Source of the DNA: Bifidobacterium aquikefiricola
GTDB lineage: Bacteria > Actinomycetota > Actinomycetes > Actinomycetales > Bifidobacteriaceae
Assembly: GCF_041080795.1 (NCBI RefSeq)
Contig: NZ_CP129674.1
Location: 2,268,629-2,292,628 of the forward strand
DNA: 24,000 nucleotides
Direction: 5' to 3'
The translations under genes and the position numbers were made by a program. The notes beneath the pieces were generated by a model. That model was not told the origin of the DNA and searched no databases. It worked only from the letters and a program-made list of their open reading frames with translations. Below, piece by piece: positions 10,716 to 24,000 of this stretch. How positions within the stretch are numbered: the first letter of the stretch is position 1; each line of letters begins with the position of its first letter.

Positions 10716-11636
10716 TCACCGTTCCACCCAGGCCAACAATGCTGGATCCCATTCGAGTGGTGTCGCGGTGTCGCGTGCGTACAGGTTTTCTAACAGTCCT
10801 TGTATCAGGGTGTGTGCTTGCTCTATGGTCATGTCGTCCACTTTGGTTGTCTGTGCGGTTTGATGGAATTGTGCAGGCTTCCAAGATTTAGGTATTGCGA
10901 ATTCGATAGGGTACGGCAGTTGACGTCGGACGCTTTCGCTTCTCAGTGATTCTTCGAGTGTACCGGCTTCGAAGCGTTGTGTGACGACGATGATCGCGAG
11001 GTCGACCAGATCCTTGATACGGCTGGATTCCCTCCCGTTGATCTTCTGCACCACGGCACACACCTTATCGGCGAACTGACAGGTGACCGGGTACAGGCGG
11101 TATGGATAAGTGGTCAGCCTGTCGATTGGCAGGCGGTTGACGGGTGTCAGCACATCGGCCCTGGGCATGGTTCCCTGATGAGCGACGAGGTCCACGTGTA
11201 TCGGATTGAGGAGCTTGACACCAAGACGAGTGTTGAAAACCACCCGCCACCCATCCTGATACGGCTGATTGTCCGCTTGAAGGATCGGCGTCGCGGAAAC
11301 GAATTCAAAGACGAAATGGTCGTGCAGGTCGATATCTGCCAGGCGTTTGAGTTCTTCGAGAGATTCTCGTGCATCGTATCCATTGCTGAACAGGTCCGCA
11401 TCGAGGGTGCGTCGGGTCGAGGGGATGCGGGCGAGCATGGCACTACCTCCTTTGAGTACCCAGGTGCTCTCCTCCCCCTCGCTGAAGACCCTGCTGAGGA
11501 ACCGGTCATAGTGAGCCTGTCTAATGAGGTCGCCTACCAGCCGTTTCGGATGGCGTGCATGCTCGGCTTTCGCGGCGCTTTTGATGGCCGCCTCGACCGC
11601 GATACCAGACGAGTAGGCGTAGGTGTCGTCGGTCAT
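10716..11636 (-). CDS. abiEii: AbiEii/AbiGii-family nucleotidyltransferase toxin (type IV TA / abortive infection)
   Basis: 306 aa. HYDRFLSRVF....WVLKGGSAMLARIPSTRRTLDADLF is the characteristic DUF1814/AbiEii N-terminal NTase motif. A GAAAGGA RBS is present. The gene lies 23 nt downstream of the AbiEi gene. Confidence 0.9.
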   Translation of the reverse strand: MTDDTYAYSSGIAVEAAIKSAAKAEHARHPKRLVGDLIRQAHYDRFLSRVFSEGEESTWVLKGGSAMLARIPSTRRTLDADLFSNGYDARESLEELKRLADIDLHDHFVFEFVSATPILQADNQPYQDGWRVVFNTRLGVKLLNPIHVDLVAHQGTMPRADVLTPVNRLPIDRLTTYPYRLYPVTCQFADKVCAVVQKINGRESSRIKDLVDLAIIVVTQRFEAGTLEESLRSESVRRQLPYPIEFAIPKSWKPAQFHQTAQTTKVDDMTIEQAHTLIQGLLENLYARDTATPLEWDPALLAWVER

Positions 11637-11659
11637 GATGTTGTCCTTTCTTCTGGGAT

Positions 11660-12544
11660 TTACGATTCTTTGGGATCAGCATCGTCTGAAGTGTCGGCGG
11701 GGAAAGTACCGCTGATGCCGGGATTCTCCTTGTCTGATTGCATGCGTTCAACGAACAGTTGCGCGAATTCATGGATCTTCATCAGGGCATTCGCGATAGC
11801 CTCAGCGTTACTGTTTGAGAACGAATCATACGTGAAATTCGTAAGGGACTCGAAGCGGTCACTTAGCACTTGGGCTGCATTCCGGAGCGTTTCACTGATG
11901 CGGTCATCCACCGGTCCCATCAGCTGCGCAACCATCGACTTCCCGTCCTCGGGGGCGAAACCTTGACGTTTCGCCAGCGGTGCCAGTCGTCTGGCGAGCT
12001 TATCCCTGTCCAAATCCCCGGATCGGTGCACAAACTCTTTCAGCAGCATGTTCTGAATCAAGGAAAGGTCTGTTCCTATTTCCACCAGATCGGCCACAGT
12101 CTGTTCGAATATCGTCACCGGCAGACCATTGACTATTCGCACGGACTCGCTGGGATAGCGTCGTGTGCGCAGCTTGAGATCTGCTCTTTGTGTCTGTCGT
12201 CGCCGCGGCGTGGAGAACCGGTAGGGTTCGGGAACGAAATCACCAACCCCGAGCATCCATGCTGCGCTTTCAAGACAGACGATGGCCTCGTCAGGCACGT
12301 CACGCAGACGTGCCTCAGCGGTGCGTTTCGGATCGATGGACAGCCAGGCGGCATGCACGCCCTCGAAAGCGTCAGTCGGCACCCCCGCATCCTTGTATAT
12401 ACCGTGAGCCAAACGCTCGAAGATACCTGACCGTTCCATGCGTGACAGATCGAGTCTCGTCACACCAAGCATCTCGGCTTGCGAGGTCGTCACCATACCC
12501 CACTGGCCTGATGTGAGTGTGGCAAGCTTTGCGACTTTATTCAT
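11660..12544 (-). CDS. abiEi: AbiEi-family antitoxin / transcriptional autoregulator
   Basis: 294 aa. The N-terminal winged-HTH is LATLTSGQWGMVTTSQAEMLGVTRLDLSRMERSGIFERLAHGIYKDAG (AbiEi_4-type). It sits upstream of AbiEii, which is the canonical gene order. Confidence 0.85.
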   Translation of the reverse strand: MNKVAKLATLTSGQWGMVTTSQAEMLGVTRLDLSRMERSGIFERLAHGIYKDAGVPTDAFEGVHAAWLSIDPKRTAEARLRDVPDEAIVCLESAAWMLGVGDFVPEPYRFSTPRRRQTQRADLKLRTRRYPSESVRIVNGLPVTIFEQTVADLVEIGTDLSLIQNMLLKEFVHRSGDLDRDKLARRLAPLAKRQGFAPEDGKSMVAQLMGPVDDRISETLRNAAQVLSDRFESLTNFTYDSFSNSNAEAIANALMKIHEFAQLFVERMQSDKENPGISGTFPADTSDDADPKES

Positions 12545-12651: not shown

Positions 12652-12689
12652 CTACCCTTGCATCGCTCATGGGCTGGTATCGTGTGAGG
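12652..12689. repeat. Right copy of the 38-bp imperfect direct repeat flanking the AbiE cassette
   Basis: CTACCCTTGCATCGCTCATGGGCTGGTATCGTGTGAGG. It lies 2059 bp from the left copy in the same orientation, inside the leader of the YjdF-family gene. Confidence 0.8.
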
Positions 12690-12746
12690 TGAAGATAAAA
12701 ACACAGTTCGGTACGGTAGTCCGGACGCGGTTTCCCGTCAGTATCC

Positions 12747-12789
12747 AGCCTCCTCGGCCGTCCAATCTTCTCGAATCATAGAGGAGGTT
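12747..12789 (+). promoter_or_regulatory. Predicted RBS-sequestering hairpin in the leader of the YjdF-family gene
   Basis: AGCCTCCTC (12747-12755) can pair with GAGGAGGTT (12781-12789) over 9 bp, including one G-U pair. The second arm is the GAGGAGG Shine-Dalgarno, 7 nt before the ATG at 12795. The loop is 25 nt. Confidence 0.3.
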
Positions 12790-12794
12790 GTAGT

Positions 12795-13238
12795 ATGCCT
12801 GAAAACGGGCGTAAGTTTTCAAAAGCTCAATCAACAGTATATTTTGACGGCTCGTTCTGGGTCTGTGTGTGCGAGCGCGAGAACGACGGGAAAATTCAGG
12901 TTTGTAGGATAGTGTTTGGCAGTGAACCAAAGGACTATGAGGTTCTTGATTATTTGCAGAAGCATTATTATTCGTTGGAGTTTAGTACTCCGATAAGTGT
13001 TTCCGACAGAAGCAGGAAAAGCTCTCGCAATGTGAATCCTAAGCGTCTGGAAAGAATGGCCGCTCGATCGATGCGACAACGTGGAATCAGCACAAAGGCA
13101 CAGTTGGCGCTTTCTGCTGCAAGGGATGAGCACAAGAAGAACGACAAGATTCAGAACCGTCTGAGAAGAGTCGAAGCGGATAATCATCGACGCATGCTCA
13201 AGATTCAGAAAAGAAAACTCAAGCATCGCGGACACTGA
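12795..13238 (+). CDS. YjdF-family (DUF2992) protein
   Basis: 147 aa. VYFDGSFWVCVCERENDGKIQVCRIVFGSEPKDYEVLDYL matches the DUF2992/YjdF N-terminal pattern as I recall it from B. subtilis YjdF. The C-terminal half is strongly basic (K/R-rich). A strong RBS is present. Confidence 0.7.
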   Translation: MPENGRKFSKAQSTVYFDGSFWVCVCERENDGKIQVCRIVFGSEPKDYEVLDYLQKHYYSLEFSTPISVSDRSRKSSRNVNPKRLERMAARSMRQRGISTKAQLALSAARDEHKKNDKIQNRLRRVEADNHRRMLKIQKRKLKHRGH

Positions 13239-15760: not shown

Positions 15761-16366
15761 ATGACTCCTAAAAATAATCATGGTGAAGGTGAACATCGCC
15801 GCCGTGGAACCGCCCTGGAACATTCGCTCCTCGACGCGGCGTGGCAGGTGCTGCTTGACGTGGGATATGACAATCTGACCTTCGACGCCGTGGCCCAGGC
15901 AGCTTCAACAAGCCGGGCAGTGCTGTATCGACGTTGGCCAGCCAAACCCGATCTGGCGCGAGCAGCCGTAATTCACGCTCTCAAAGGCACGCGGTTGCCC
16001 TGCCCCAACACCGGCAATCTCCGTGACGACCTCATTGGTGCATTGACGCAAATCAACGAGAAACGCATCCGCATCGGCATTGAACTCGAATCGAGACTCC
16101 TGAACTATTTCGGAGAAACCGCATTCAGCAACACCGCATCCCGCGACGCTCACAACCAGCAGAGTTCGCATATCAACACCATCCTGAACCGAGCCGTGGA
16201 GCGCGGAGACATCAATCCACAGCTTCTGACACCACGGGTGCGCGAACTACCGATTCAACTGTTTCGCGATGAAGTTCTCAGAACGCGCCGCCCAGTCCCG
16301 CACGAAGCCATCGAATCCATGATTGACGACATCGTCCTGCCCGTGCTGACACGACCGGCTCACTGA
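15761..16366 (+). CDS. TetR/AcrR-family transcriptional regulator
   Basis: 201 aa. The HTH is LLDAAWQVLLDVGYDNLTFDAVAQAASTSRAVLYRRWPAKPDL. A TACAAT -10-like hexamer lies at 15745-15750. The small inverted repeat CCTAT-N9-ATAGG (15735-15753) is a weak operator candidate. Confidence 0.9.
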   Translation: MTPKNNHGEGEHRRRGTALEHSLLDAAWQVLLDVGYDNLTFDAVAQAASTSRAVLYRRWPAKPDLARAAVIHALKGTRLPCPNTGNLRDDLIGALTQINEKRIRIGIELESRLLNYFGETAFSNTASRDAHNQQSSHINTILNRAVERGDINPQLLTPRVRELPIQLFRDEVLRTRRPVPHEAIESMIDDIVLPVLTRPAH

Positions 16367-16406
16367 GCAGCAGCTTTTCGACAGAGCGGCACTCGGCTTC
16401 GACAGG

Positions 16407-17339
16407 TCAGTCCACATTGATGGTGGCGTAGTGTTGGGCCGCTTCAGCCACCCGATGATTGTAGTCAACAGAGGGATTGTAGGCGCTGATAGCACTGATC
16501 CAGTTCTTGGATTGAGTCAGATTTCCTCCGGTCTTGCACAAATACAAGCCTGCCGCGAGCGCAGCGTCGTCAATCTGGTTGATGTCCTGTTTGCCGTCAC
16601 GGTTGCCATCTTGTGCGGCGCTCTTCCATGTTGCAGGAATGAACTGCATCGGCCCTACCGCGCGATCCCAGGTGGTGTCGCCGTCAATCTCGCCACGATC
16701 CGTATCCGGGGTACGGTTGTTTCCGTTGCCATCGAGGGCCACACCGATGATTGATGGAGCGACCGTCCCGTCTGCATGCAGTGTGGCGTTATTGGTGCTG
16801 CCATGTTCGGTTTCTACCTGACCGATGGCAGCGAGGGTGTTCCATCCCAGTCCGCATGAGGGATGGGTGCGAGACACGGCGATTGACGCTCCTGCATAGG
16901 CTTGCAGCGCGCGTTCGGGAATGCCGGACGATTTGGCGATTTTCGTCACCCATTCCTTGTCTGCAAGTTTCGCAATGGGTATGTTCTCTTGCTCACCGCC
17001 GTTGGCAGTCACATTGGCAGTACCGGATGCCGAGGGTGCTGCGCTGGTTGGCGCTGTTGTTGTAGCTTCCGTGTCCGTAGCTAGCGTGGCGCTGCTGCTT
17101 GCATGCCCTGCAGCGCTTGCCTGACTCTCGTCATTTTCTGGTGCATAAGTTGCGGCGAACAATGCTGCAAGAAGTGCGGCAATCCCCAATAATCCGAGCA
17201 CACTCATGGTCGTTGGCCACGCTAGCCGCCGCCAGGGTATGGCAGCAGAAGTGTGGCGCGCGTTGTCCGGAGTGTACTCCGAGGCATTGGTTTCAGGTGT
17301 CGAAGGGAATAATGGAAAAGGATTCTGTGGATCAGTCAT
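16407..17339 (-). CDS. Membrane-anchored lytic transglycosylase (SLT_2/MltB-like domain)
   Basis: About 310 aa from the ATG at 17339. It has an N-terminal TM segment (MSVLGLLGIAALLAALFAATYA) and an Ala/Thr/Ser-rich linker. The catalytic region reads AAIGQVETEHGS...WDRAVGPMQFIPATWK...DGNRDGKQDINQIDDAALAAGLYLC. The upstream 42 codons of the track ORF overlap the permease gene and are rejected. Confidence 0.8.
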   Translation of the reverse strand: MTDPQNPFPLFPSTPETNASEYTPDNARHTSAAIPWRRLAWPTTMSVLGLLGIAALLAALFAATYAPENDESQASAAGHASSSATLATDTEATTTAPTSAAPSASGTANVTANGGEQENIPIAKLADKEWVTKIAKSSGIPERALQAYAGASIAVSRTHPSCGLGWNTLAAIGQVETEHGSTNNATLHADGTVAPSIIGVALDGNGNNRTPDTDRGEIDGDTTWDRAVGPMQFIPATWKSAAQDGNRDGKQDINQIDDAALAAGLYLCKTGGNLTQSKNWISAISAYNPSVDYNHRVAEAAQHYATINVD

Positions 17340-18360
17340 GGTCAGACCTTCTGGAAATACGATGTGAACGATGTGTGGAACGATGCTCCGATGGAATGGA
17401 TTCGGTAGCACTCTGAGGAGCTTGAACACCTTGAGATATCTGAACACCCTGAGATGCCTGAACACTCTGCGATGCCTGAGCCTGTCTGAGTGTCGCGCGT
17501 GACCTATGTCCGTGTGTCACTGCGCGAATGACAACGCCTTGTTGTGGAGAAAACAGCCACGCGCACAGAAAAACTGCCGTCAACACCAGCACGATGGTGC
17601 CGCCTGTCGGAAAATCCCATGACCACGAAACGTACAGGCCGGTCAGTGCCGAACATGCGCCAATCACCGGAGCCACGACCATCATGATGCCCAGACGGTC
17701 AGTCAGCAGGCGTGCGGTTGCCGCCGGTGTCACCAGCAGAGCGAGCACGAGGATATTACCGATGGTTTGCACGCTTATCACGACCGCAAGCGTGACCAGC
17801 ACGTAGAGAGCCAGATCGAGCCAGAATACCGCGAGTCCTTGTGCCCGTGCGGATTCACGATCCAAGGAGACGGTCACCAATTCCTTGTGAAGAAGGAATA
17901 TGACCAGCAACACCACGAGCGAAGTACCCGCCACAATGTACAGATCCGACTCGGGAATTCCTGTTATCGAGCCGAAGAGGAACTGCTGCAAAGACCCTGC
18001 ATATCCGGGCGATTGGGAGATAATGACAATGCCAAGCGCGAAGGCGGCGACGAACAGGATGCCGATGATGGAATCTTCTTTCAATCGTCGGTTCTGCGAA
18101 AACACGGCGACAAGAATCGCCGTAAGCACTCCGGCGACCGTTCCACCGAGCACGAGGTTGCCGGAAATCACAAATGCGACAGCCAAACCGGGGAATACGG
18201 CATGTGCCACGGCATCACCGATGAACGCCATGCCGCGCAGCACAACGTAGCAGCCCACTACCCCGCACACCATGGAAGACATCACCGCAACCGCTAATGC
18301 CTTGGGTAGGAACGCGAGATTTGGGTTGAACAAATCCATAAAGAAATCAACGGGACTCAT
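17332..18360 (-). CDS. Anchored-repeat-type ABC transporter permease (ZnuB/TroD-like) with a hydrophilic C-terminal extension
   Basis: MSPVDFFMDLFNPNLAFLPKALAVAVM...FIGDAVAHAVFPGLAVAF is typical of metal (Zn/Mn/Fe) ABC-3 permeases. The start at 18360 forms an ATGA overlap with the ATPase stop. The last roughly 60 aa are non-membrane, with (QxSQGV)n repeats and a His/Arg-rich tail. Confidence 0.9.
   Translation of the reverse strand: MSPVDFFMDLFNPNLAFLPKALAVAVMSSMVCGVVGCYVVLRGMAFIGDAVAHAVFPGLAVAFVISGNLVLGGTVAGVLTAILVAVFSQNRRLKEDSIIGILFVAAFALGIVIISQSPGYAGSLQQFLFGSITGIPESDLYIVAGTSLVVLLVIFLLHKELVTVSLDRESARAQGLAVFWLDLALYVLVTLAVVISVQTIGNILVLALLVTPAATARLLTDRLGIMMVVAPVIGACSALTGLYVSWSWDFPTGGTIVLVLTAVFLCAWLFSPQQGVVIRAVTHGHRSRATLRQAQASQSVQASQGVQISQGVQAPQSATESIPSEHRSTHRSHRISRRSDHD
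17422..17475. repeat. 18-bp tandem repeat, three good copies plus degenerate flanking copies, inside the permease 3' end
   Basis: TTGAACACCTTGAGATAT / CTGAACACCCTGAGATGC / CTGAACACTCTGCGATGC, followed by the degenerate CTGAGCCTGTCTGAGTGT (17476-17493). On the minus strand this encodes QASQSV-QASQGV-QISQGV-QAPQSA. Confidence 0.75.
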
Positions 18361-19190
18361 GCGACCGCCTTCACCATGCGCAGCAATGCGGAGTCGCGCC
18401 CCACACCGAAGGTCGTCGTCCACGCATCAGGGTTCGATACCAATGCGGATGGGGTTCCGGCTGCGATAATCGTCGAATTCAGCAATGCCAGACGGTCAGC
18501 GCCTCCTATCGCACCAACAAGGTCATGCGTGGTCATCAACACGGCATGGCCTTCATGCGCGATATCGCGAAACAGACCGGCAAGCAGCTCTTGGGTCGGC
18601 ATATCAAGTCCCGTATAAGGTTCATCCAGCAGCAGCACCGAAGGTTGCAGGGCGAGGGCGCGTGCCACCAGCACCCGCTGGCGTTGCCCGCCGGAAAGCT
18701 GACCTACCGGCCTGTCTGCAAGCGCCGTCATGCGCACACGATCAAGGGCATCAGCGACAGCTTCCCAAACGGCCGCATCAGGACGTTTGAACAACCCCAA
18801 TTTTCCACACAGTCCTGTCGCCACCACGTTGGCAACGGAAATCGGAAAATCCCAGGCGAACTCGTGGCGTTGGGGAACATAGCCGATGGCGGCACGCCCA
18901 GGCTTGGCACTTCTCCCATCGACGAGCACCCGCCCGAACGCGGCACGCTGCAAACCGAGAACGGTACGCAACAATGTGGTTTTGCCCGCACCATTCGGTC
19001 CTATCAGCGCGAGCAGCTCACCCCGCTCAACGCTAAGGTTGACAGATTGCAGCACGCATCTGCCACCAAGTTCAACCGTCACATCGTCAAGACGCAGCGC
19101 GGCATGTGCATTGGCATGTGTTTTATTGTGTGCGGCAGGAAGCGATGCGGCCTGCGCTGTGGGGAATGCTGTATCCGTTGCTGCACTCAT
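18357..19190 (-). CDS. Anchored-repeat-type ABC transporter ATP-binding subunit (ZnuC/TroB-like)
   Basis: Walker A GPNGAGKTT, signature LSGGQRQRV, Walker B LLLDEPYTGLD, H-loop TTHD. An ATGA overlap joins it to the upstream gene at 19187-19190. Confidence 0.9.
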   Translation of the reverse strand: MSAATDTAFPTAQAASLPAAHNKTHANAHAALRLDDVTVELGGRCVLQSVNLSVERGELLALIGPNGAGKTTLLRTVLGLQRAAFGRVLVDGRSAKPGRAAIGYVPQRHEFAWDFPISVANVVATGLCGKLGLFKRPDAAVWEAVADALDRVRMTALADRPVGQLSGGQRQRVLVARALALQPSVLLLDEPYTGLDMPTQELLAGLFRDIAHEGHAVLMTTHDLVGAIGGADRLALLNSTIIAAGTPSALVSNPDAWTTTFGVGRDSALLRMVKAVA

Positions 19191-20296
19191 ATGCCACCAC
19201 CAACGCTTTGGTCGCCACCTGTTTCCGCCTCACTCTCGGCTTTGCGCCTTCGATCGTCGAGAATACGGCGTTTGGCCTTGTTTCCGCGCACTATCACCAC
19301 GGTGAAACCTGCAACCAAGGCAATGAATACCACGATGATGGCTCCAATAAGCACGGCAACCAGCGCAGTGTTTGCAGGGGCACTGCCCTCCTGCCCGCTT
19401 TGTCCCGTAGCAGCCGAGCCACCGCTTTTGGTCTTGTCAGCACTGCCGTCAGCGCTCTCGTTGCCGCTAGCACCGCCACTGGCATCTGAGGAACCGGCAT
19501 GGTCGGATTTTGCGGCGCTACTCCCCTGCCACTGTTGGGCGAATGCCTGATCTGCCGTGGTTGCCGTGCCCACTGCGAAGCGAATGTGCTGAGTGTCCGT
19601 CACATGGCTGCCGTCACGCAGCTCAGCTTCGGCGGTAAGTTCAACGAGATACACGCCGGGTTGCGTGAACACCCAGTTCGCGTGCGTATGCGTGTTGACA
19701 TCCACCCAGATGGGCTGGGATTCGCTCTTGCGTGAATCCCACAACACTTGCGGCTCGCCAAAGGAGCCCGACTGCAGATAGGTCGTCATGATGCCCGGCC
19801 CCTGCACCCCCGTCAGCGACAGAGTGATGCCGCGTTCGATGGTGTTCATCACCTCGGGGTCTTGCGTATTCCACCCTATCCACACCACTTCGGGATTCTG
19901 CGTCTGCGGCACCACGTACACGTCACTGCCAGCCGCAGCACCCACAAACGAATAGGCAGGGTCTTCAGGAACGGCGAGTTTCGCCGCGTCGAGCACATGG
20001 AACACCGTTTCGTCGGGATAGCGCCACACGCTGGTGGCATTCGCGTCAGCCTTGGCCACATCATCGTGAATGAGGAAACGCCAAACCCCCTGGTCATATT
20101 TCGGTCCCATATCAATATGCCCGGTGACCAGTTCACGCTGACCGTGGACGATGGCAAGCTCGCCTATCGTCTGGTTCAGATTCGGGTCTTCACCATCCTC
20201 GGCGTATGCCAAAGCCGGTATGCCAAGAGCTGCAAGGCTGGTGAGAGTGGCCAGCAGCGCTGCAATACGACGTCGAAATGGATGCAGGTTCATCAT
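19187..20296 (-). CDS. Membrane-anchored surface protein with one actinobacterial anchored-repeat domain (TIGR03769-type / choice-of-anchor-M-like)
   Basis: Signal peptide MMNLHPFRRRIAALLATLTSLAALGIPALAYA. The domain motifs are GHIDMG, VYVVPQTQ, VWIGWNTQ, GPG and HTHANWVF. A Gly/Ser/Asp-rich linker follows, then a C-terminal TM segment (LVAVLIGAIIVVFIALVAGFTVVIV) and a basic cytoplasmic tail. No LPXTG motif is present. Confidence 0.8.
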   Translation of the reverse strand: MMNLHPFRRRIAALLATLTSLAALGIPALAYAEDGEDPNLNQTIGELAIVHGQRELVTGHIDMGPKYDQGVWRFLIHDDVAKADANATSVWRYPDETVFHVLDAAKLAVPEDPAYSFVGAAAGSDVYVVPQTQNPEVVWIGWNTQDPEVMNTIERGITLSLTGVQGPGIMTTYLQSGSFGEPQVLWDSRKSESQPIWVDVNTHTHANWVFTQPGVYLVELTAEAELRDGSHVTDTQHIRFAVGTATTADQAFAQQWQGSSAAKSDHAGSSDASGGASGNESADGSADKTKSGGSAATGQSGQEGSAPANTALVAVLIGAIIVVFIALVAGFTVVIVRGNKAKRRILDDRRRKAESEAETGGDQSVGGGI

Positions 20297-21984
20297 GAAG
20301 TTTTCCTATCTGTCGAATCGGTGAGGCATTCATTGAGGCTGTCGGCGTTGAATCGCAGCATCTGCTCGTAGCTGTTGACCTCATTGGAGAAGGTGTCGCC
20401 ATATATCGGGCACACGCGAATGCCTTCATCATTGGCAACCTGTTGCAAGGTTGATGATCTGCTGGCAAGGTTCGGTTCAAGAAACACAGCGGGCACTTGC
20501 AGGGAGCGGATGGTTTCGACCAGTTTGCGCCGGTCCGCCAGCGAAGGCTCCGTAGCAGGGTTGGGAGTGACGAATCCGGCAACGGAAAGACCATATGCAT
20601 GGGCAAGATATCCGAAAGCATCATGAGTGGTCACCAGATACCGTCCCTGCTGAGGAATCTTGGCGAGTGCCGCCGACATGTAGTCATCCGTCGCTTCCAA
20701 GGTTTTCAGATACGCTTCGGCATGTGCCACGTATTGAGCGGTATGAGCTGGGTCAGCGCCGATAAGCGTGTCTCGTATGAGCTGCACATAGGCCATGCCG
20801 TTGCGAGCGTTCTGCCACAAATGCGGGTCAATCTCGCCATGTACATGCTTGCCGAGTACGGCTTGCGCGAGCTGATACACATGCTGTCCAGGACGGCCAA
20901 GGAAGGCGTATTGAGATCCTTTGGGAATTTCCGCCAACGCTTTGGCTGGCACATCCACAACGACCTGACTTGCCGGATATGCTTGCTGGGAGTGTTCGCC
21001 TCCGCCACCCGGATCGTAGCGAACTTCCAAGGCTGCCGAGTCAAGGTTCGCGGTCAAATCGGCATGCCCTTTGTCGAGTATCACCGGGTTCTTGATTCCA
21101 GTCTGCTTGGCAGCCTGAGTGGGGTTCACCCCCACGGCGAAGGTGTATGTTGCATGCCCCAAAGCCACGGGTTTGGCGGTATCGCTCACTTTGAGCTTGG
21201 CTTGCAGGTCGATGGTGTACACGCCTGGCTTGGTGAAGGCCCACGATAGATGCGTATGCGCGTCCGCAGGCAGCGACATGGTGTCGTCGCGATACCCCTG
21301 TGCCGCGTCAAAACCGTCGGAGGAGTCAAAATAGCGTTCCGTATTGCCAAAGGAACCCGTCAAATATGCGAATATATCGCCCGGGCCAGTGGCGTTCGTG
21401 GCAGAGAGCAGCACTTCGGAGGTGCGGGTTGCACCGTAGCGTTCCCCGCTGCCATGCGCCCGCAATCCAAGCCACACGGTGTCAAGGTTGACGTTCTCCA
21501 CTAAGGGAATGATCTCGGCAGCGTATTTCACCGCTTCCTCAGCCAGAGACACGTTGATGGCATCTGAACGCAGGTTAGCATCAAGGGTTTTAATCACCGA
21601 CTGTTCTTCCAACATTGCATAATTGGAAAATGCGACATCGGCATAGACGACATTTCGGGCGTCTCGCAATGTTGGCTCATAGGAATGTGGATCGCTGTTA
21701 TCAGGTATGAGGGATACGGCATCTACATAATCACCGCCGACGTGTTCGACCATGTCCCGCAAAATCCCCGTCGTGGTGACCACCCGTAACCGTTCGCTAT
21801 GCGCGGGCAAGGCTGGTCTGGCGGCGCACCCTGATACCAGCAGCACGCCACACAGCACACCCACCGTTGTCATCCACCGTGCGGCATATCGCACAGCAGC
21901 ACAACGCGCAGCACAACGCACGACTGACCGCATCGCACACCGGACGACCGACCGCACGTCAACTGTTATGGCCGTGTTCGCCAT
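20293..21984 (-). CDS. Anchored-repeat ABC transporter substrate-binding lipoprotein: ZnuA/TroA-like cluster A-I SBP with an inserted repeat domain of about 220 aa
   Basis: Lipobox LLVSGC. The SBP metal-ligand motifs are SDPHSYEP, EIDPHLW, VTTHDAFGY and PIYGDTF. An insert between the first two motifs (about 20839-21492) carries VWLGL, GPG, HTHLSWAF and GHAD. The start is uncertain: 21984 is the longest option and overlaps the upstream gene by 19 nt. ATG 21933 and ATG 21873 (MTTVGVLCGVLLVSGC, a typical lipoprotein signal) are alternatives. Confidence 0.85.
   Translation of the reverse strand: MANTAITVDVRSVVRCAMRSVVRCAARCAAVRYAARWMTTVGVLCGVLLVSGCAARPALPAHSERLRVVTTTGILRDMVEHVGGDYVDAVSLIPDNSDPHSYEPTLRDARNVVYADVAFSNYAMLEEQSVIKTLDANLRSDAINVSLAEEAVKYAAEIIPLVENVNLDTVWLGLRAHGSGERYGATRTSEVLLSATNATGPGDIFAYLTGSFGNTERYFDSSDGFDAAQGYRDDTMSLPADAHTHLSWAFTKPGVYTIDLQAKLKVSDTAKPVALGHATYTFAVGVNPTQAAKQTGIKNPVILDKGHADLTANLDSAALEVRYDPGGGGEHSQQAYPASQVVVDVPAKALAEIPKGSQYAFLGRPGQHVYQLAQAVLGKHVHGEIDPHLWQNARNGMAYVQLIRDTLIGADPAHTAQYVAHAEAYLKTLEATDDYMSAALAKIPQQGRYLVTTHDAFGYLAHAYGLSVAGFVTPNPATEPSLADRRKLVETIRSLQVPAVFLEPNLASRSSTLQQVANDEGIRVCPIYGDTFSNEVNSYEQMLRFNADSLNECLTDSTDRKTS
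21896..21955. repeat. Compound tandem repeat at the SBP 5' end / intergenic junction
   Basis: GCAGCACAACGC is perfectly duplicated in tandem (21896-21907 and 21908-21919). ACGACTGACCGC (21920-21931) and ACGACCGACCGC (21944-21955) recur at 24-bp spacing. If translated, the region gives RSVVRCAM-RSVVRCAA-RCAA. Confidence 0.7.
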
Positions 21985-24000
21985 GCCAATGACCCGTTGC
22001 GCTTACCCATCCACCACAGCACGCCCGCACCCGCAGCACCGCTGAGCAGCAGTAGCCCGAGTATCGTCAGCAGCAGTGGCACAGGATTGCCTTCTGTCAG
22101 TGCAGCCAAAGGACCGGCACCTTTTGCCCGAGGACCTTGTGCTGCATCAACGCGCTCGTCGGCCTGCTCGGTGTCATCGGCTTCGCCAGCAAGTGCGGAA
22201 GCCTGATCTGCCGCCTTTAATGCCGCTTCTTCTGCGAGTTTCTTGGCCCTTGCAGTACCGGCATCATCGGCGGTGAACACGAGTCGAGCTTGCGATGCTG
22301 TGTTGCAATCCGTCGTGGAGCTCATGGCCGATGCGGGGTCAACCGCACCCACCACAATCGTGAGGGTTTCAGTATCCGAAGATGTCTGACCGTTAGCAAG
22401 CGTGGCGGTCTGCGTCATCGAAATCCGGTATATGCCTTCCCTGCTGAACGCCCAGTTCGCATGTGCGTGAACGCCAAGAGGAATCCTGTAGCTGCCTGCG
22501 CCGTTGAATACCATCTGCTGCACTCCGCCGAACGCGCCAGCCAAATACACCTTCATTGACCCTGGACCATTCACCGAGTTGATGGTCCACGTAACCGGCC
22601 CGCGAGCGTTACCAGCATTCAGCGATTCCGTATTCCATCCCAGCCAAATAAGATTCGCTTGCTGCGTCTGCGGAATCTGCCACACACGCGAACCTGCCGC
22701 ACCAATCTGCCCATAACCATTCGGCAATGTCACGACACTGGAGGGCTTCAGCCACAGAATCGTCCCCGCTGGCTCACGGTAAACCTTGGTTCCTGATGTG
22801 TCATCACCAATCAACGATTGCAAACTGCCATTGACGATGCGTGACGAGTAATCCACATGCCCAGAAGACAGCACCGTTGCGCCAACCACACACTGGCGTG
22901 CCGCCAACGTTGTGACAGGAGGAGTATTGTCACCAGACGTTAGCTGATCCTTCGGAGCATTCGGCACCGATGGAGGCGTAACGACCTTGACCTCACTCCA
23001 CCCGATCAGGCTGCCGCCCTCGGATCTCACTTCAATGCGGTGCTCTCCCACAGGAGTATCTTTTGGCACTCGGAAACTCGCCACATGCTGAGCATCAACC
23101 GTCTGCTTGCCGAGGTTTGTAGGCGTTGAGTGCAGCCATCCGGTAACATCTTTGCCCGCATATCCTTGCGGCAACTGCACACGAAGTAGCTGGCCGGGAT
23201 AGAATCCCTGCGCGCCATCAAGCACACGCAGACCGCCTCTATTGGCATCCGTCAACTCCTCGGTTGGCGTGGTATCCCCATCCGGTGCAGGCTGTTCATC
23301 CTGTCCGGTGAAGCAGTTGGCCGGGTCGGCTTGCATCACGTCGGCATGACCCACGGCCACGGCCAACACAAACGGGCTGGTAACCCGAGCACCGGAAGCC
23401 AGGGTCGTGGCACGTTCAAACGCCAAGCAATACGAACCCTCAGCACTAAACGCCCACGAACCATGAGCATGCGTGTTCTTAGGAATCGTGAACCTATCAG
23501 CATCAGACACGCCATCACGCGTATTAAACAGCACCTCAGGCTGACCAAATATGCCAAGCTGGTACAGCGCGAACTCGCCCGGACCAGACACGTTTGTCAA
23601 ACGCCAATCCACGCCATTCGTCGCGTTCAAGGTAATCGACTCAGTTGACCAACCCGGCCACAACAACCCGGCCTGCTGGGTCTGCGTGACCTGATAGAAC
23701 TGCGAACCCGCATTACCAAGGAACGACCACTGGCTACCAGACGGCACCTGAGCCTGAGCGCCAGGCAACAACTGCAACACCGTCTTCGTAGGATCACGCC
23801 ATGTCTCAGAACCGCTGGTGGTGTCCTTCACCTGAGTCACCAGACGATTACCATCAAGCAGCGAAGCAATGTCAACATGCCCATCATTCAACACCGTCGC
23901 ACCAGCAGCATTCACCGTCCCGTTAGCAACATTCCACACAGGCTGCGGCACAGGAACACCGGAATCATCGTCACCGCCAGAGCCATCACCCGCATCACCC
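21966..24000 (-). CDS. ABC transporter-associated surface repeat protein (TIGR03773-like): two anchored-repeat domains flanking an Ig-like segment, with a C-terminal membrane anchor; 5' end beyond the right edge
   Basis: The reading frame stays open to the window edge (...GDAGDGSGGDDDSGVPVPQPVWN...). Domain copies lie at about 23349-23903 (GHVDIA, YQVTQTQ, LWPGWST, GPG, HAHGSWAF) and about 22347-22883 (GHVDYS, WQIPQTQ, IWLGWNTE, GPG, HAHANWAF). The tail reads PLAALTEGNPVPLLLTILGLLLLSGAAGAGVLWWMGKRNG, that is, hydrophobic plus basic with no canonical LPXTG. Confidence 0.85.
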   Translation of the reverse strand, partial: GDAGDGSGGDDDSGVPVPQPVWNVANGTVNAAGATVLNDGHVDIASLLDGNRLVTQVKDTTSGSETWRDPTKTVLQLLPGAQAQVPSGSQWSFLGNAGSQFYQVTQTQQAGLLWPGWSTESITLNATNGVDWRLTNVSGPGEFALYQLGIFGQPEVLFNTRDGVSDADRFTIPKNTHAHGSWAFSAEGSYCLAFERATTLASGARVTSPFVLAVAVGHADVMQADPANCFTGQDEQPAPDGDTTPTEELTDANRGGLRVLDGAQGFYPGQLLRVQLPQGYAGKDVTGWLHSTPTNLGKQTVDAQHVASFRVPKDTPVGEHRIEVRSEGGSLIGWSEVKVVTPPSVPNAPKDQLTSGDNTPPVTTLAARQCVVGATVLSSGHVDYSSRIVNGSLQSLIGDDTSGTKVYREPAGTILWLKPSSVVTLPNGYGQIGAAGSRVWQIPQTQQANLIWLGWNTESLNAGNARGPVTWTINSVNGPGSMKVYLAGAFGGVQQMVFNGAGSYRIPLGVHAHANWAFSREGIYRISMTQTATLANGQTSSDTETLTIVVGAVDPASAMSSTTDCNTASQARLVFTADDAGTARAKKLAEEAALKAADQASALAGEADDTEQADERVDAAQGPRAKGAGPLAALTEGNPVPLLLTILGLLLLSGAAGAGVLWWMGKRNGSLAWRTRP

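Follow-up and report, generated by a model that had tools for sequence, protein, structure and literature searches.

The closest described counterpart of the locus studied here is the znu cluster of Corynebacterium diphtheriae, which we compare with a six-gene operon of Bifidobacterium aquikefiricola lying at positions 16407-24000, on the minus strand, of a 24,000-nucleotide (nt) stretch of contig NZ_CP129674.1 (positions 2,268,629 to 2,292,628; this whole stretch is called the window below). The C. diphtheriae class has been characterized between 2009 and 2025 (Smith 2009; Peng & Schmitt 2019, PMC6711530; Peng, Lyman & Schmitt 2024 and 2025, PMC12445094). Its troA-dip0445 cluster is repressed by Zur and zinc and driven by two zinc-regulated promoters, one of them inside the dip0441 coding region, and dip0438, dip0440, and dip0441 are listed under the NCBI names "anchored repeat" substrate-binding protein (SBP), ATPase, and permease (PMC6711530). 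The 2025 study renamed the genes znuA-znuE-znuC-znuB and znuF-znuG-dip0444-dip0445. It described an HxD...HxH motif, bracketing ~150 residues, that is common to ZnuE, ZnuF, ZnuG, CmrA, and CmrA2 and reversed in ZnuA, and it reported that zinc causes a thermal shift of ZnuE, ZnuF, and ZnuG in vitro, that ZnuE and its His residues are needed for function and ZnuE for growth in low zinc, and that ZnuF is localized to the wall without a sortase signal and independently of all six sortases (PMC12445094). The cluster supports growth when the medium is short of zinc, and zinc import by the locus is attributed to Peng et al. 2024.

As judged from its sequence, the B. aquikefiricola operon is a member of this class, and it is probably a Zur-repressed, zinc-starvation-induced operon for high-affinity Zn2+ uptake, the counterpart of the C. 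diphtheriae znu cluster. The initial annotation of the window had described the operon as being of unknown function, defined only by comparative genomics, and as the strongest candidate for an undescribed system; in view of the published work that novelty falls, while the annotation stands. Rather than "function unknown," the six genes can be named znuA/E/C/B-like, together with a ZnuF-like wall protein and an MltB-like enzyme. The open reading frame (ORF) listing of the window gives them in one direction, and we refer to them as g1 to g6 from the first gene to the last:

21966 to the window edge (24000), minus strand: g1, 3' part (2,035 nt) of a ZnuF-like wall protein, TIGR03773
20293-21984 as listed, 20293-21873 from the minimal start, minus strand: g2, lipoprotein SBP of the ZnuA/TroA type (cluster A-I), TIGR03772 and PF01297
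19187-20296, minus strand: g3, ZnuE-like protein with a signal peptide, one domain, a flexible linker of ~55 amino acids (aa), a C-terminal transmembrane helix, and a basic tail
18357-19190, minus strand: g4, ATP-binding cassette (ABC) ATPase, TIGR03771
17332-18360, minus strand: g5, ABC-3 permease with a ~70-aa C-terminal tail, from ATG (longest ORF from GTG 18423), TIGR03770
16407-17339, minus strand: g6, candidate membrane-anchored MltB-like lytic transglycosylase, from ATG (longest ORF from GTG 17465), SLT_2

The operon resembles the C. diphtheriae znu cluster in several respects: its SBP, ATPase, and permease belong to the same "anchored repeat" families and its core order equals znuAECB; the accessory proteins g1 and g3 carry HxD...HxH, in reversed order in the SBP g2; the SBP has a 3-His site in which, as in C. 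diphtheriae, 66 residues separate the second His from the third; the multidomain g1, like ZnuF, ends in a transmembrane helix and basic tail with no sortase motif; and a Zur operator, here a predicted box, lies upstream.

Family membership and gene layout

Family calls were judged against the NCBIfam curated cut-offs and, for SLT_2, against the Pfam gathering score. g1 matched TIGR03773 with 462.6 bits on its window part (cut-off 190.3) and 736.5 bits on the full protein, the match ending at profile position 469 of 516, while g2 matched TIGR03772 (709.4 bits; cut-off 350.45), g4 matched TIGR03771 (332.2 bits; cut-off 268.8), and g5 matched TIGR03770 (464.6 bits; cut-off 296.8) over profile positions 1-270 of 270. 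The choice-of-anchor M model NF038134 recognized g3 at 199 bits (cut-off 55), and g6 gave a weak match to SLT_2, 30.2 bits against a gathering score of 24.3. TIGR03769 was found in g1, g2, and g3, and the repeat domain is present inside the SBP too (g2: NF038134, 98.6 bits; TIGR03769, 49.7 bits); Pfam has no model for it. All of the families named in the initial annotation (TIGR03769-TIGR03773 and SLT_2) were matched, TIGR03770, TIGR03771, TIGR03772, TIGR03773, and SLT_2 above their cut-offs. Its reading of a ZnuABC/TroABC-like metal importer agrees with these matches, as does its proposal of three envelope proteins with a common repeat domain, since the choice-of-anchor M domain is present in g1, g2, and g3.

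In the anchored-repeat ABC transporter class, to which the permease, ATPase, and SBP are each assigned at the equivalog cut-off, the repeat stands on adjacent surface proteins. In the sense of the TIGRFAMs description, "anchored" in the family name refers to an LPXTG-type sortase anchor on the repeat protein. The C-termini of g1 and g3 contain no LPXTG/LAxTG sortase signal and have a transmembrane helix and basic tail instead.

The genes are tightly packed, with ATGA stop/start overlaps at 20293-20296 (g2/g3), 19187-19190 (g3/g4), and 18357-18360 (g4/g5) in the ORF coordinates and an 8-nt overlap, ATGACTGA, read directly at 17332-17339 (g5/g6). ORF coordinates and direct reading agree with the six minus-strand genes and the overlap positions originally described. 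One correction concerns g1: its reading frame stays open as far as base 24000, and the gene runs on past the window edge. Its remainder was read from contig JBDNYH010000009.1 (GCA_047722195.1; hereafter L037), which is 100% identical to the reverse complement of the window over 14,814 nt, L037 positions being 30297 minus the window position.

A shared domain on three envelope proteins

The SBP core of g2 matched PF01297 at 219 bits, and its model aligned with the solved folds of MntC, YfeA, AztC, and TroA at template modeling (TM) scores of 0.75-0.85 (on target), in keeping with the cluster A-I fold of two lobes and a long backbone helix. In an alignment of 65 g2 homologues, the cluster A-I ligands H63, H351, H417, and D493 were invariant, the third of them (H417) within a THD motif. 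Cluster A-I SBPs with His as third ligand (3 His plus Asp/Glu) are of the zinc type, and those with Glu (2 His, Glu, and Asp) are of the Mn/Fe type. By its residues, g2 has the zinc-type 3-His plus Asp site and belongs to the zinc subtype of cluster A-I.

Import of manganese or iron rather than zinc, with the repeat domains serving that metal, was weighed at this point. In the PDB, the SBP core was closest in sequence and fold to the Mn/Fe proteins PsaA, MtsA, MntC, and YfeA, NCBIfam models of the MntC type matched g2 at 130-155 bits, and cluster A-I SBPs are often promiscuous, with C. diphtheriae Mnt also moving zinc. However, the third ligand of g2 is an invariant His and not Glu, the best NCBIfam match after TIGR03772 is the zinc protein AztC (189 bits), the upstream operator is a Zur box and not an MntR/DtxR box, and the orthologous system is under Zur and zinc control and sustains growth when zinc is limiting. 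We consider a manganese or iron importer very unlikely.

Reading g2 as a zinc-binding protein, we then examined the additional segment that splits it:

20854-21507, minus strand: g2 insert (aa ~123-340), read as a circularly permuted choice-of-anchor M domain

The g3-family profile aligned to this segment in swapped order, profile positions 84-201 onto residues 123-250 and positions 10-88 onto residues 264-338, and an artificially re-permuted insert gave a single end-to-end match of 61 bits. On this profile evidence, the insert is the choice-of-anchor M domain of the neighboring proteins in circularly permuted form. Its HxH (H206/H208) precedes its HxD (H270/D272), all four residues being invariant in the 65 homologues, and the permutation accounts for the reversed motif order noted for ZnuA. 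In the AlphaFold model of g2, the insert is a confident beta domain between low-confidence linkers (residues 112-129 and 338-348), and it is absent from all solved structural relatives of g2, which are 260-286 residues long. The insert enters directly before the ligand His of DPHLW and ends nine residues ahead of the ligand His; the alignment of E. coli ZnuA (2osv) to g2 likewise resumes at chain residue 108, nine residues before the ligand His. We take this site, from the structural literature on ZnuA, to be the position of the ZnuA His-rich loop. An extra invariant HxH (H343/H345, in GKHVHGE; window 20839-20856, minus strand, residues 340-345) lies in the low-confidence linker before H351 and may be a remnant of the His-rich loop or a transfer station.

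The single domain of g3 carries H60, D62, H203, and H205, which were invariant in an alignment of 70 homologues, with 141 aa between HxD and HxH, compared to the ~150 aa reported for ZnuE/F/G. It was modeled as a beta-sandwich (residues 54-242), most 10-residue blocks having a predicted local distance difference test (pLDDT) score >90 with a few dips to 76-80, followed by the ~55-residue linker at low confidence and a helix at 310-362. When the g3 model was compared by fold with the PDB, nothing was returned at E <= 0.001 (the best hits, the PAD-family chains PADI6 and PAD1, had E = 2e-3 and TM ~0.2) and no functional lead emerged, and a PDB sequence search with g3 gave nothing meaningful. The repeat domain had been described as lacking structural characterization, and after these sequence and fold searches, which gave no close solved relative, that still holds.

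The full g1 in L037 spans 5,169 nt and encodes 1722 aa, starting 3,134 nt past the right window edge. It has a Sec signal peptide, six choice-of-anchor M stretches, and a C-terminal transmembrane helix with a basic end. Four of the six domains have the GHxD and HxH motifs and the other two are degenerate, their motifs gone; the protein also contains a ~120-aa acidic linker rich in Asp, Gly, and Ser. Three of its features lie within the window:

23340-23903, minus strand: fifth domain copy of g1 (aa ~1078-1265 in the full-length protein), carrying GHVD and HAH; motifs VLNDGHVDIASLL and NTHAHGSWAF
22344-22883, minus strand: sixth domain copy of g1 (aa ~1418-1597 in the full-length protein), carrying GHVD and HAH; NF038134 on residues 360-534 of the window ORF, profile 1-184 of 184
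21966-22121, minus strand: g1 C-terminal tail, with the ALTEGNPVPLLLTILG motif, transmembrane helix, and basic end

The tail has a consensus, [T]AL..G[DN]PVPLLLS[IV]LG...GAAG.G.LWWRRR, that is common to the wall proteins of 16 related loci, and the more distant relatives in Promicromonospora and Streptomyces have LASTG in place of the PVPLLL-type tail. The PVPLLL tail may be linked to the sortase-independent wall localization reported for C. diphtheriae ZnuF.

In g5, the C-terminal extension is encoded in part by a tandem repeat (18 nt x 3.2; 17423-17479, minus strand) that specifies Q-x-S-Q-G/S-V hexapeptides, and it has a His/Arg-rich end, SEHRSTHRSHRISRRSDHD; such a tail occurs in only some relatives. 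The permease ORF (L037 11937-12965; window 17332-18360) is missing from the NCBI gene record of the contig and is called in two Logan contigs. The missing entry is probably a gap in the record and not a pseudogene, the ORF being intact and matching TIGR03770 end to end.

For g6, the family motifs VE[ST]EHG, GPMQFIP.TW, and DGNxDG were kept across 17 homologues, and the catalytic Glu of VE[ST]EHG was present in 16 of them, the remaining one (L035) having Asp. Scores were far below the NCBIfam cut-offs for MltB (31.7 vs. 248.45 bits) and MltB_2 (20.5 vs. 281.4 bits), and a PDB sequence search with g6 found no relative at E < 0.05. By these scores, g6 is only a distant, shorter relative of MltB.

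Regulation, transcription, and conservation

A Zur box upstream of the first gene had been proposed as a check on the initial annotation. Beyond the right window edge, upstream of g1, we found a perfect 7-1-7 palindrome, TGATAACTGTTATCA, at L037 2703-2717, overlapped by a second, one-mismatch Zur-like site at L037 2691-2705; both lie directly downstream of a promoter-like element, TTGACA-17-TATTGT (L037 2659-2687). The palindrome agrees with the published actinobacterial Zur consensus TGAAAATGATTTTCA, which sits inside a 21-bp palindrome (PMC2823685), and an exact match to TGAnAAnnnTTnTCA arose in 0 of 100 shuffles. Sixteen other related loci likewise had exact Zur boxes upstream of the cluster, and in ~10 of these loci the boxes adjoined a wall-protein or SBP gene. 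Inspection of the region directly upstream of g1 for an AdcR-type or other operator, by eye only, gave nothing convincing, and two-mismatch Zur sites within the window were at chance level (11 vs. 8.6 expected). Zinc control in B. aquikefiricola is likely on this evidence. In C. acnes, a related operon is co-regulated with L28 and S14 ribosomal protein genes, which we infer to be zinc-independent paralogues of the Zur regulon, and in G. vaginalis, a related operon was among the top-induced in secretion-mimicking medium.

The leader between the box and g1 (L037 2718-3162; window-equivalent 27135-27579) matched no family in an Rfam scan, which gave a chance snoRNA match at E = 0.99, and it folded marginally better than shuffles (z = -1.9), mostly through one hairpin. 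It also holds a doubtful 57-aa antisense ORF, which may be a gene remnant.

Between g1 and g2, the initial annotation had allowed for a 19-nt overlap or a short repeat-filled gap, depending on the SBP start. Both elements were seen: the g1 stop TAA is at 21966-21968 with an in-frame ATG at 21984, and 21896-21958 (minus strand) is made of 12/24-nt tandem repeats.

21874-21965, minus strand: g1/g2 junction, either a spacer or coding for an Arg-rich extension of the g2 signal peptide

Since g2 homologues have an Arg-rich n-region 20-30 aa ahead of the lipobox Cys, the start of g2 is probably GTG 21894 (gap of 71 nt) or ATG 21933 (gap of 32 nt), rather than ATG 21873, the start in the NCBI record, which leaves out the Arg residues. 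RNA structure in the repeat junction was considered and rejected, its fold being no better than that of shuffles (z = -0.08).

This junction also bears on whether the six genes form one transcription unit, or whether a second promoter in or after g1 drives g2-g6, as in C. diphtheriae, where a promoter lies inside dip0441. The g1/g2 boundary is the sole junction without an overlap, with a repeat-filled segment of 32-92 nt, and one relative (L026) has a one-mismatch Zur-like box directly upstream of its SBP gene, with no wall-protein gene before it. On the other side, a simple consensus scan of 16200-24000 found no sigma-70-like promoter on the minus strand and a single site on the plus strand (3.3 expected), a crude scan that may not suit bifidobacterial promoters, and no Zur box with <=1 mismatch lies anywhere in this interval; the junction showed no evident terminator, and terminator-like hairpins inside 16200-24000 were at chance level only. 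We consider a second promoter unlikely. A single operon, as originally proposed, is plausible from the gene layout and from the lack of minus-strand sigma-70-like sites in that scan; co-transcription as such is predicted from the sequence.

The synteny sample comprised 35 loci with a close SBP, in 5 of which the contig ended too early. In all 30 loci that were long enough, the order was SBP, g3-like single-domain membrane protein, ATPase, and permease, with no exception, and in most related loci, a large multidomain wall protein (570-2,555 aa, with 2-5 intact motif pairs) was encoded directly upstream of the SBP. A g6 homologue followed the permease in 14 of the 26 loci with enough sequence and in 0 of the LASTG loci, a correlation confounded by phylogeny. 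Relatives of g3 formed ~1,800 clusters. The operon is also found in other Bifidobacteriaceae, including Gardnerella and several metagenome-assembled genomes (MAGs), and the class has a wide distribution in Actinomycetota, among them bifidobacteria and cutibacteria of skin, vagina, and food.

g2 is 65-81% identical to the binding proteins of Microbacterium, Propionibacteriaceae, Nocardioides, and termite-gut Bifidobacteriaceae MAGs. Such identity is unusually high across these families and suggests that the operon is under strong constraint or has spread horizontally. Horizontal transfer was considered on the basis of 70-80% identity of g2 to Microbacterium/Propionibacteriaceae proteins and of the flanking defense and toxin genes. 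Downstream of the operon there is an AbiEi/AbiEii toxin-antitoxin (abortive infection) pair (window 10716-12544, minus strand), and just upstream of the operon there is a gene for a HipA_C kinase (L037 657-1844), so that the operon appears, by gene content, to stand in a defense or mobile-looking neighborhood. Elsewhere in the window, an azaaromatic (yjdF) riboswitch aptamer, RF01764, was detected at 12685-12781 on the plus strand (67.7 bits; gathering score 45). The ORF that directly follows it on the same strand, at 12795-13238, is DUF2992 (YjdF-like), as is usual for this riboswitch.

A proposed zinc relay and its relation to known systems

In the mechanism that we propose, the core importer consists of g2, a lipoprotein SBP with a 3-His plus Asp site, the g4 ATPase, and the g5 permease. 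g1, g2, and g3 display one ~185-aa beta-sandwich domain that is predicted to bind zinc through its HxD...HxH cluster: six copies, four of them intact, on g1; one copy on the flexible membrane tether of g3; and one permuted copy in g2 at the position of the His-rich loop. These domains would bind Zn2+ within the cell wall and outside it, and would concentrate the metal or pass it inward: first from g1 to g3, to the g2 insert, or to both, next to the canonical site of g2, and finally to the permease. The direction is proposed because of the topology of the proteins and by analogy with the Pht/AdcAII and His-rich-loop/ZinT systems. g6 might locally remodel peptidoglycan for the wall-spanning g1, which is speculation and the weakest step of the scheme. 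Family membership, motif invariance, the domain permutation, the Zur box, and synteny come from this analysis, and zinc/Zur repression, zinc binding, and the requirement for ZnuE come from published work on the orthologous system; we infer the direction in which zinc is handed on and what g6 does. We regard as rather doubtful, and put forward only tentatively, the specific combination of a one-domain Zn2+ relay, a bare-metal analogue of NEAT systems, with a nonsortase tail and an MltB-like enzyme as the route of ZnuF-type wall localization.

Several observations weigh against the reading as a zinc-uptake operon with such a relay. Besides the Mn/Fe-binding proteins that scored best in the PDB sequence search with the g2 core, 446 nt separate the Zur box from the g1 ATG, a 13-bp GC-rich terminator-like hairpin (L037 3077-3107) lies between the two, and the window itself contains no Zur box with <=1 mismatch; the box may control another transcript or a gene that has been lost. 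In C. diphtheriae, His-to-Ala mutants still shift with zinc, deletion of znuA has only a modest effect, and znuF and znuG deletions leave growth unimpaired (PMC12445094). Given those mutants, a zinc relay is unproven in C. diphtheriae.

The genetics of C. diphtheriae are equally compatible with buffering or storage, in which the surface proteins would be a zinc buffer, store, or sink in the wall, or adhesins, with no relay and with g3 alone working with the importer. In addition to the dispensability of znuF and znuG for growth, the presence of their products inhibits growth when the transporter is lacking and their overexpression is harmful, and the authors of that work propose sequestration or storage as alternatives (PMC12445094). 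In g1, the two domains without His motifs and the acidic Asp/Gly linker of ~120 aa, which could bind cations nonspecifically, fit the same idea. Conversely, g1 heads the operon and is joined to the genes of the transporter, and this linkage recurs in many genera, which argues for a shared task. We find a role without any relay somewhat improbable, and storage and relay are not mutually exclusive.

Zinc uptake with hand-off from surface domains has parallels in other bacteria. Like the Pht proteins and AdcAII of streptococci, the B. aquikefiricola system would combine zinc-repressed surface proteins bearing several His-based zinc sites with a proposed hand-off to a cluster A-I SBP, and surface retention of Pht is independent of sortase, as for C. 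diphtheriae ZnuF. However, the sequences are unrelated, and so are the motifs, HxxHxH in Pht and, here, HxD and HxH in a beta-sandwich with ~140 aa between them. Pht is regulated by AdcR and not Zur, and its binding protein has no copy of the domain. Auxiliary zinc-capturing elements also accompany the cluster A-I zinc SBP in the ZnuA His-rich loop, ZinT, the ZinT-like domain of AdcA, and AztC/AztD; the element in g2, a folded domain of ~215 aa, differs from the disordered loop, from the lipocalin-like fold of ZinT, and from the beta-propeller of AztD.

The heme relays built on Isd NEAT domains and on the CR domains of corynebacterial HtaA/HtaB likewise repeat one ligand-binding domain on wall and membrane proteins, are encoded beside an ABC importer, and are induced by metal starvation. 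In contrast, the ligand proposed here is a bare metal ion and not heme, the domain is unrelated, and transfer is only proposed. With MltB/Slt35 family-3 lytic transglycosylases, g6 has in common the catalytic-Glu motif, GPMQFIP.TW, and an EF-hand-like DGNxDG segment, and it differs in its short domain (~190 aa), its N-terminal transmembrane anchor, and its Ser/Thr/Ala linker.

Compared with the C. diphtheriae cluster itself, the multidomain g1 is the first gene of the operon instead of belonging to a separate downstream operon, and it is much larger (1722 aa, with six domain copies, four intact); there is no LPXTG (ZnuG-like) protein, no DIP0444, and no PorA-like DIP0445; and an MltB-like gene ends the operon, with the Zur box 446 nt from the first start codon. 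The variant features are then the wall-protein gene in first place, the six domain copies, the recognition of the permuted insert, and the MltB-like gene in last place. Of these and the features above, the permuted SBP domain, the recurrent tail, and the MltB-like gene offer testable handles on zinc hand-off and wall localization, and the new details refine a described system rather than define a new one.

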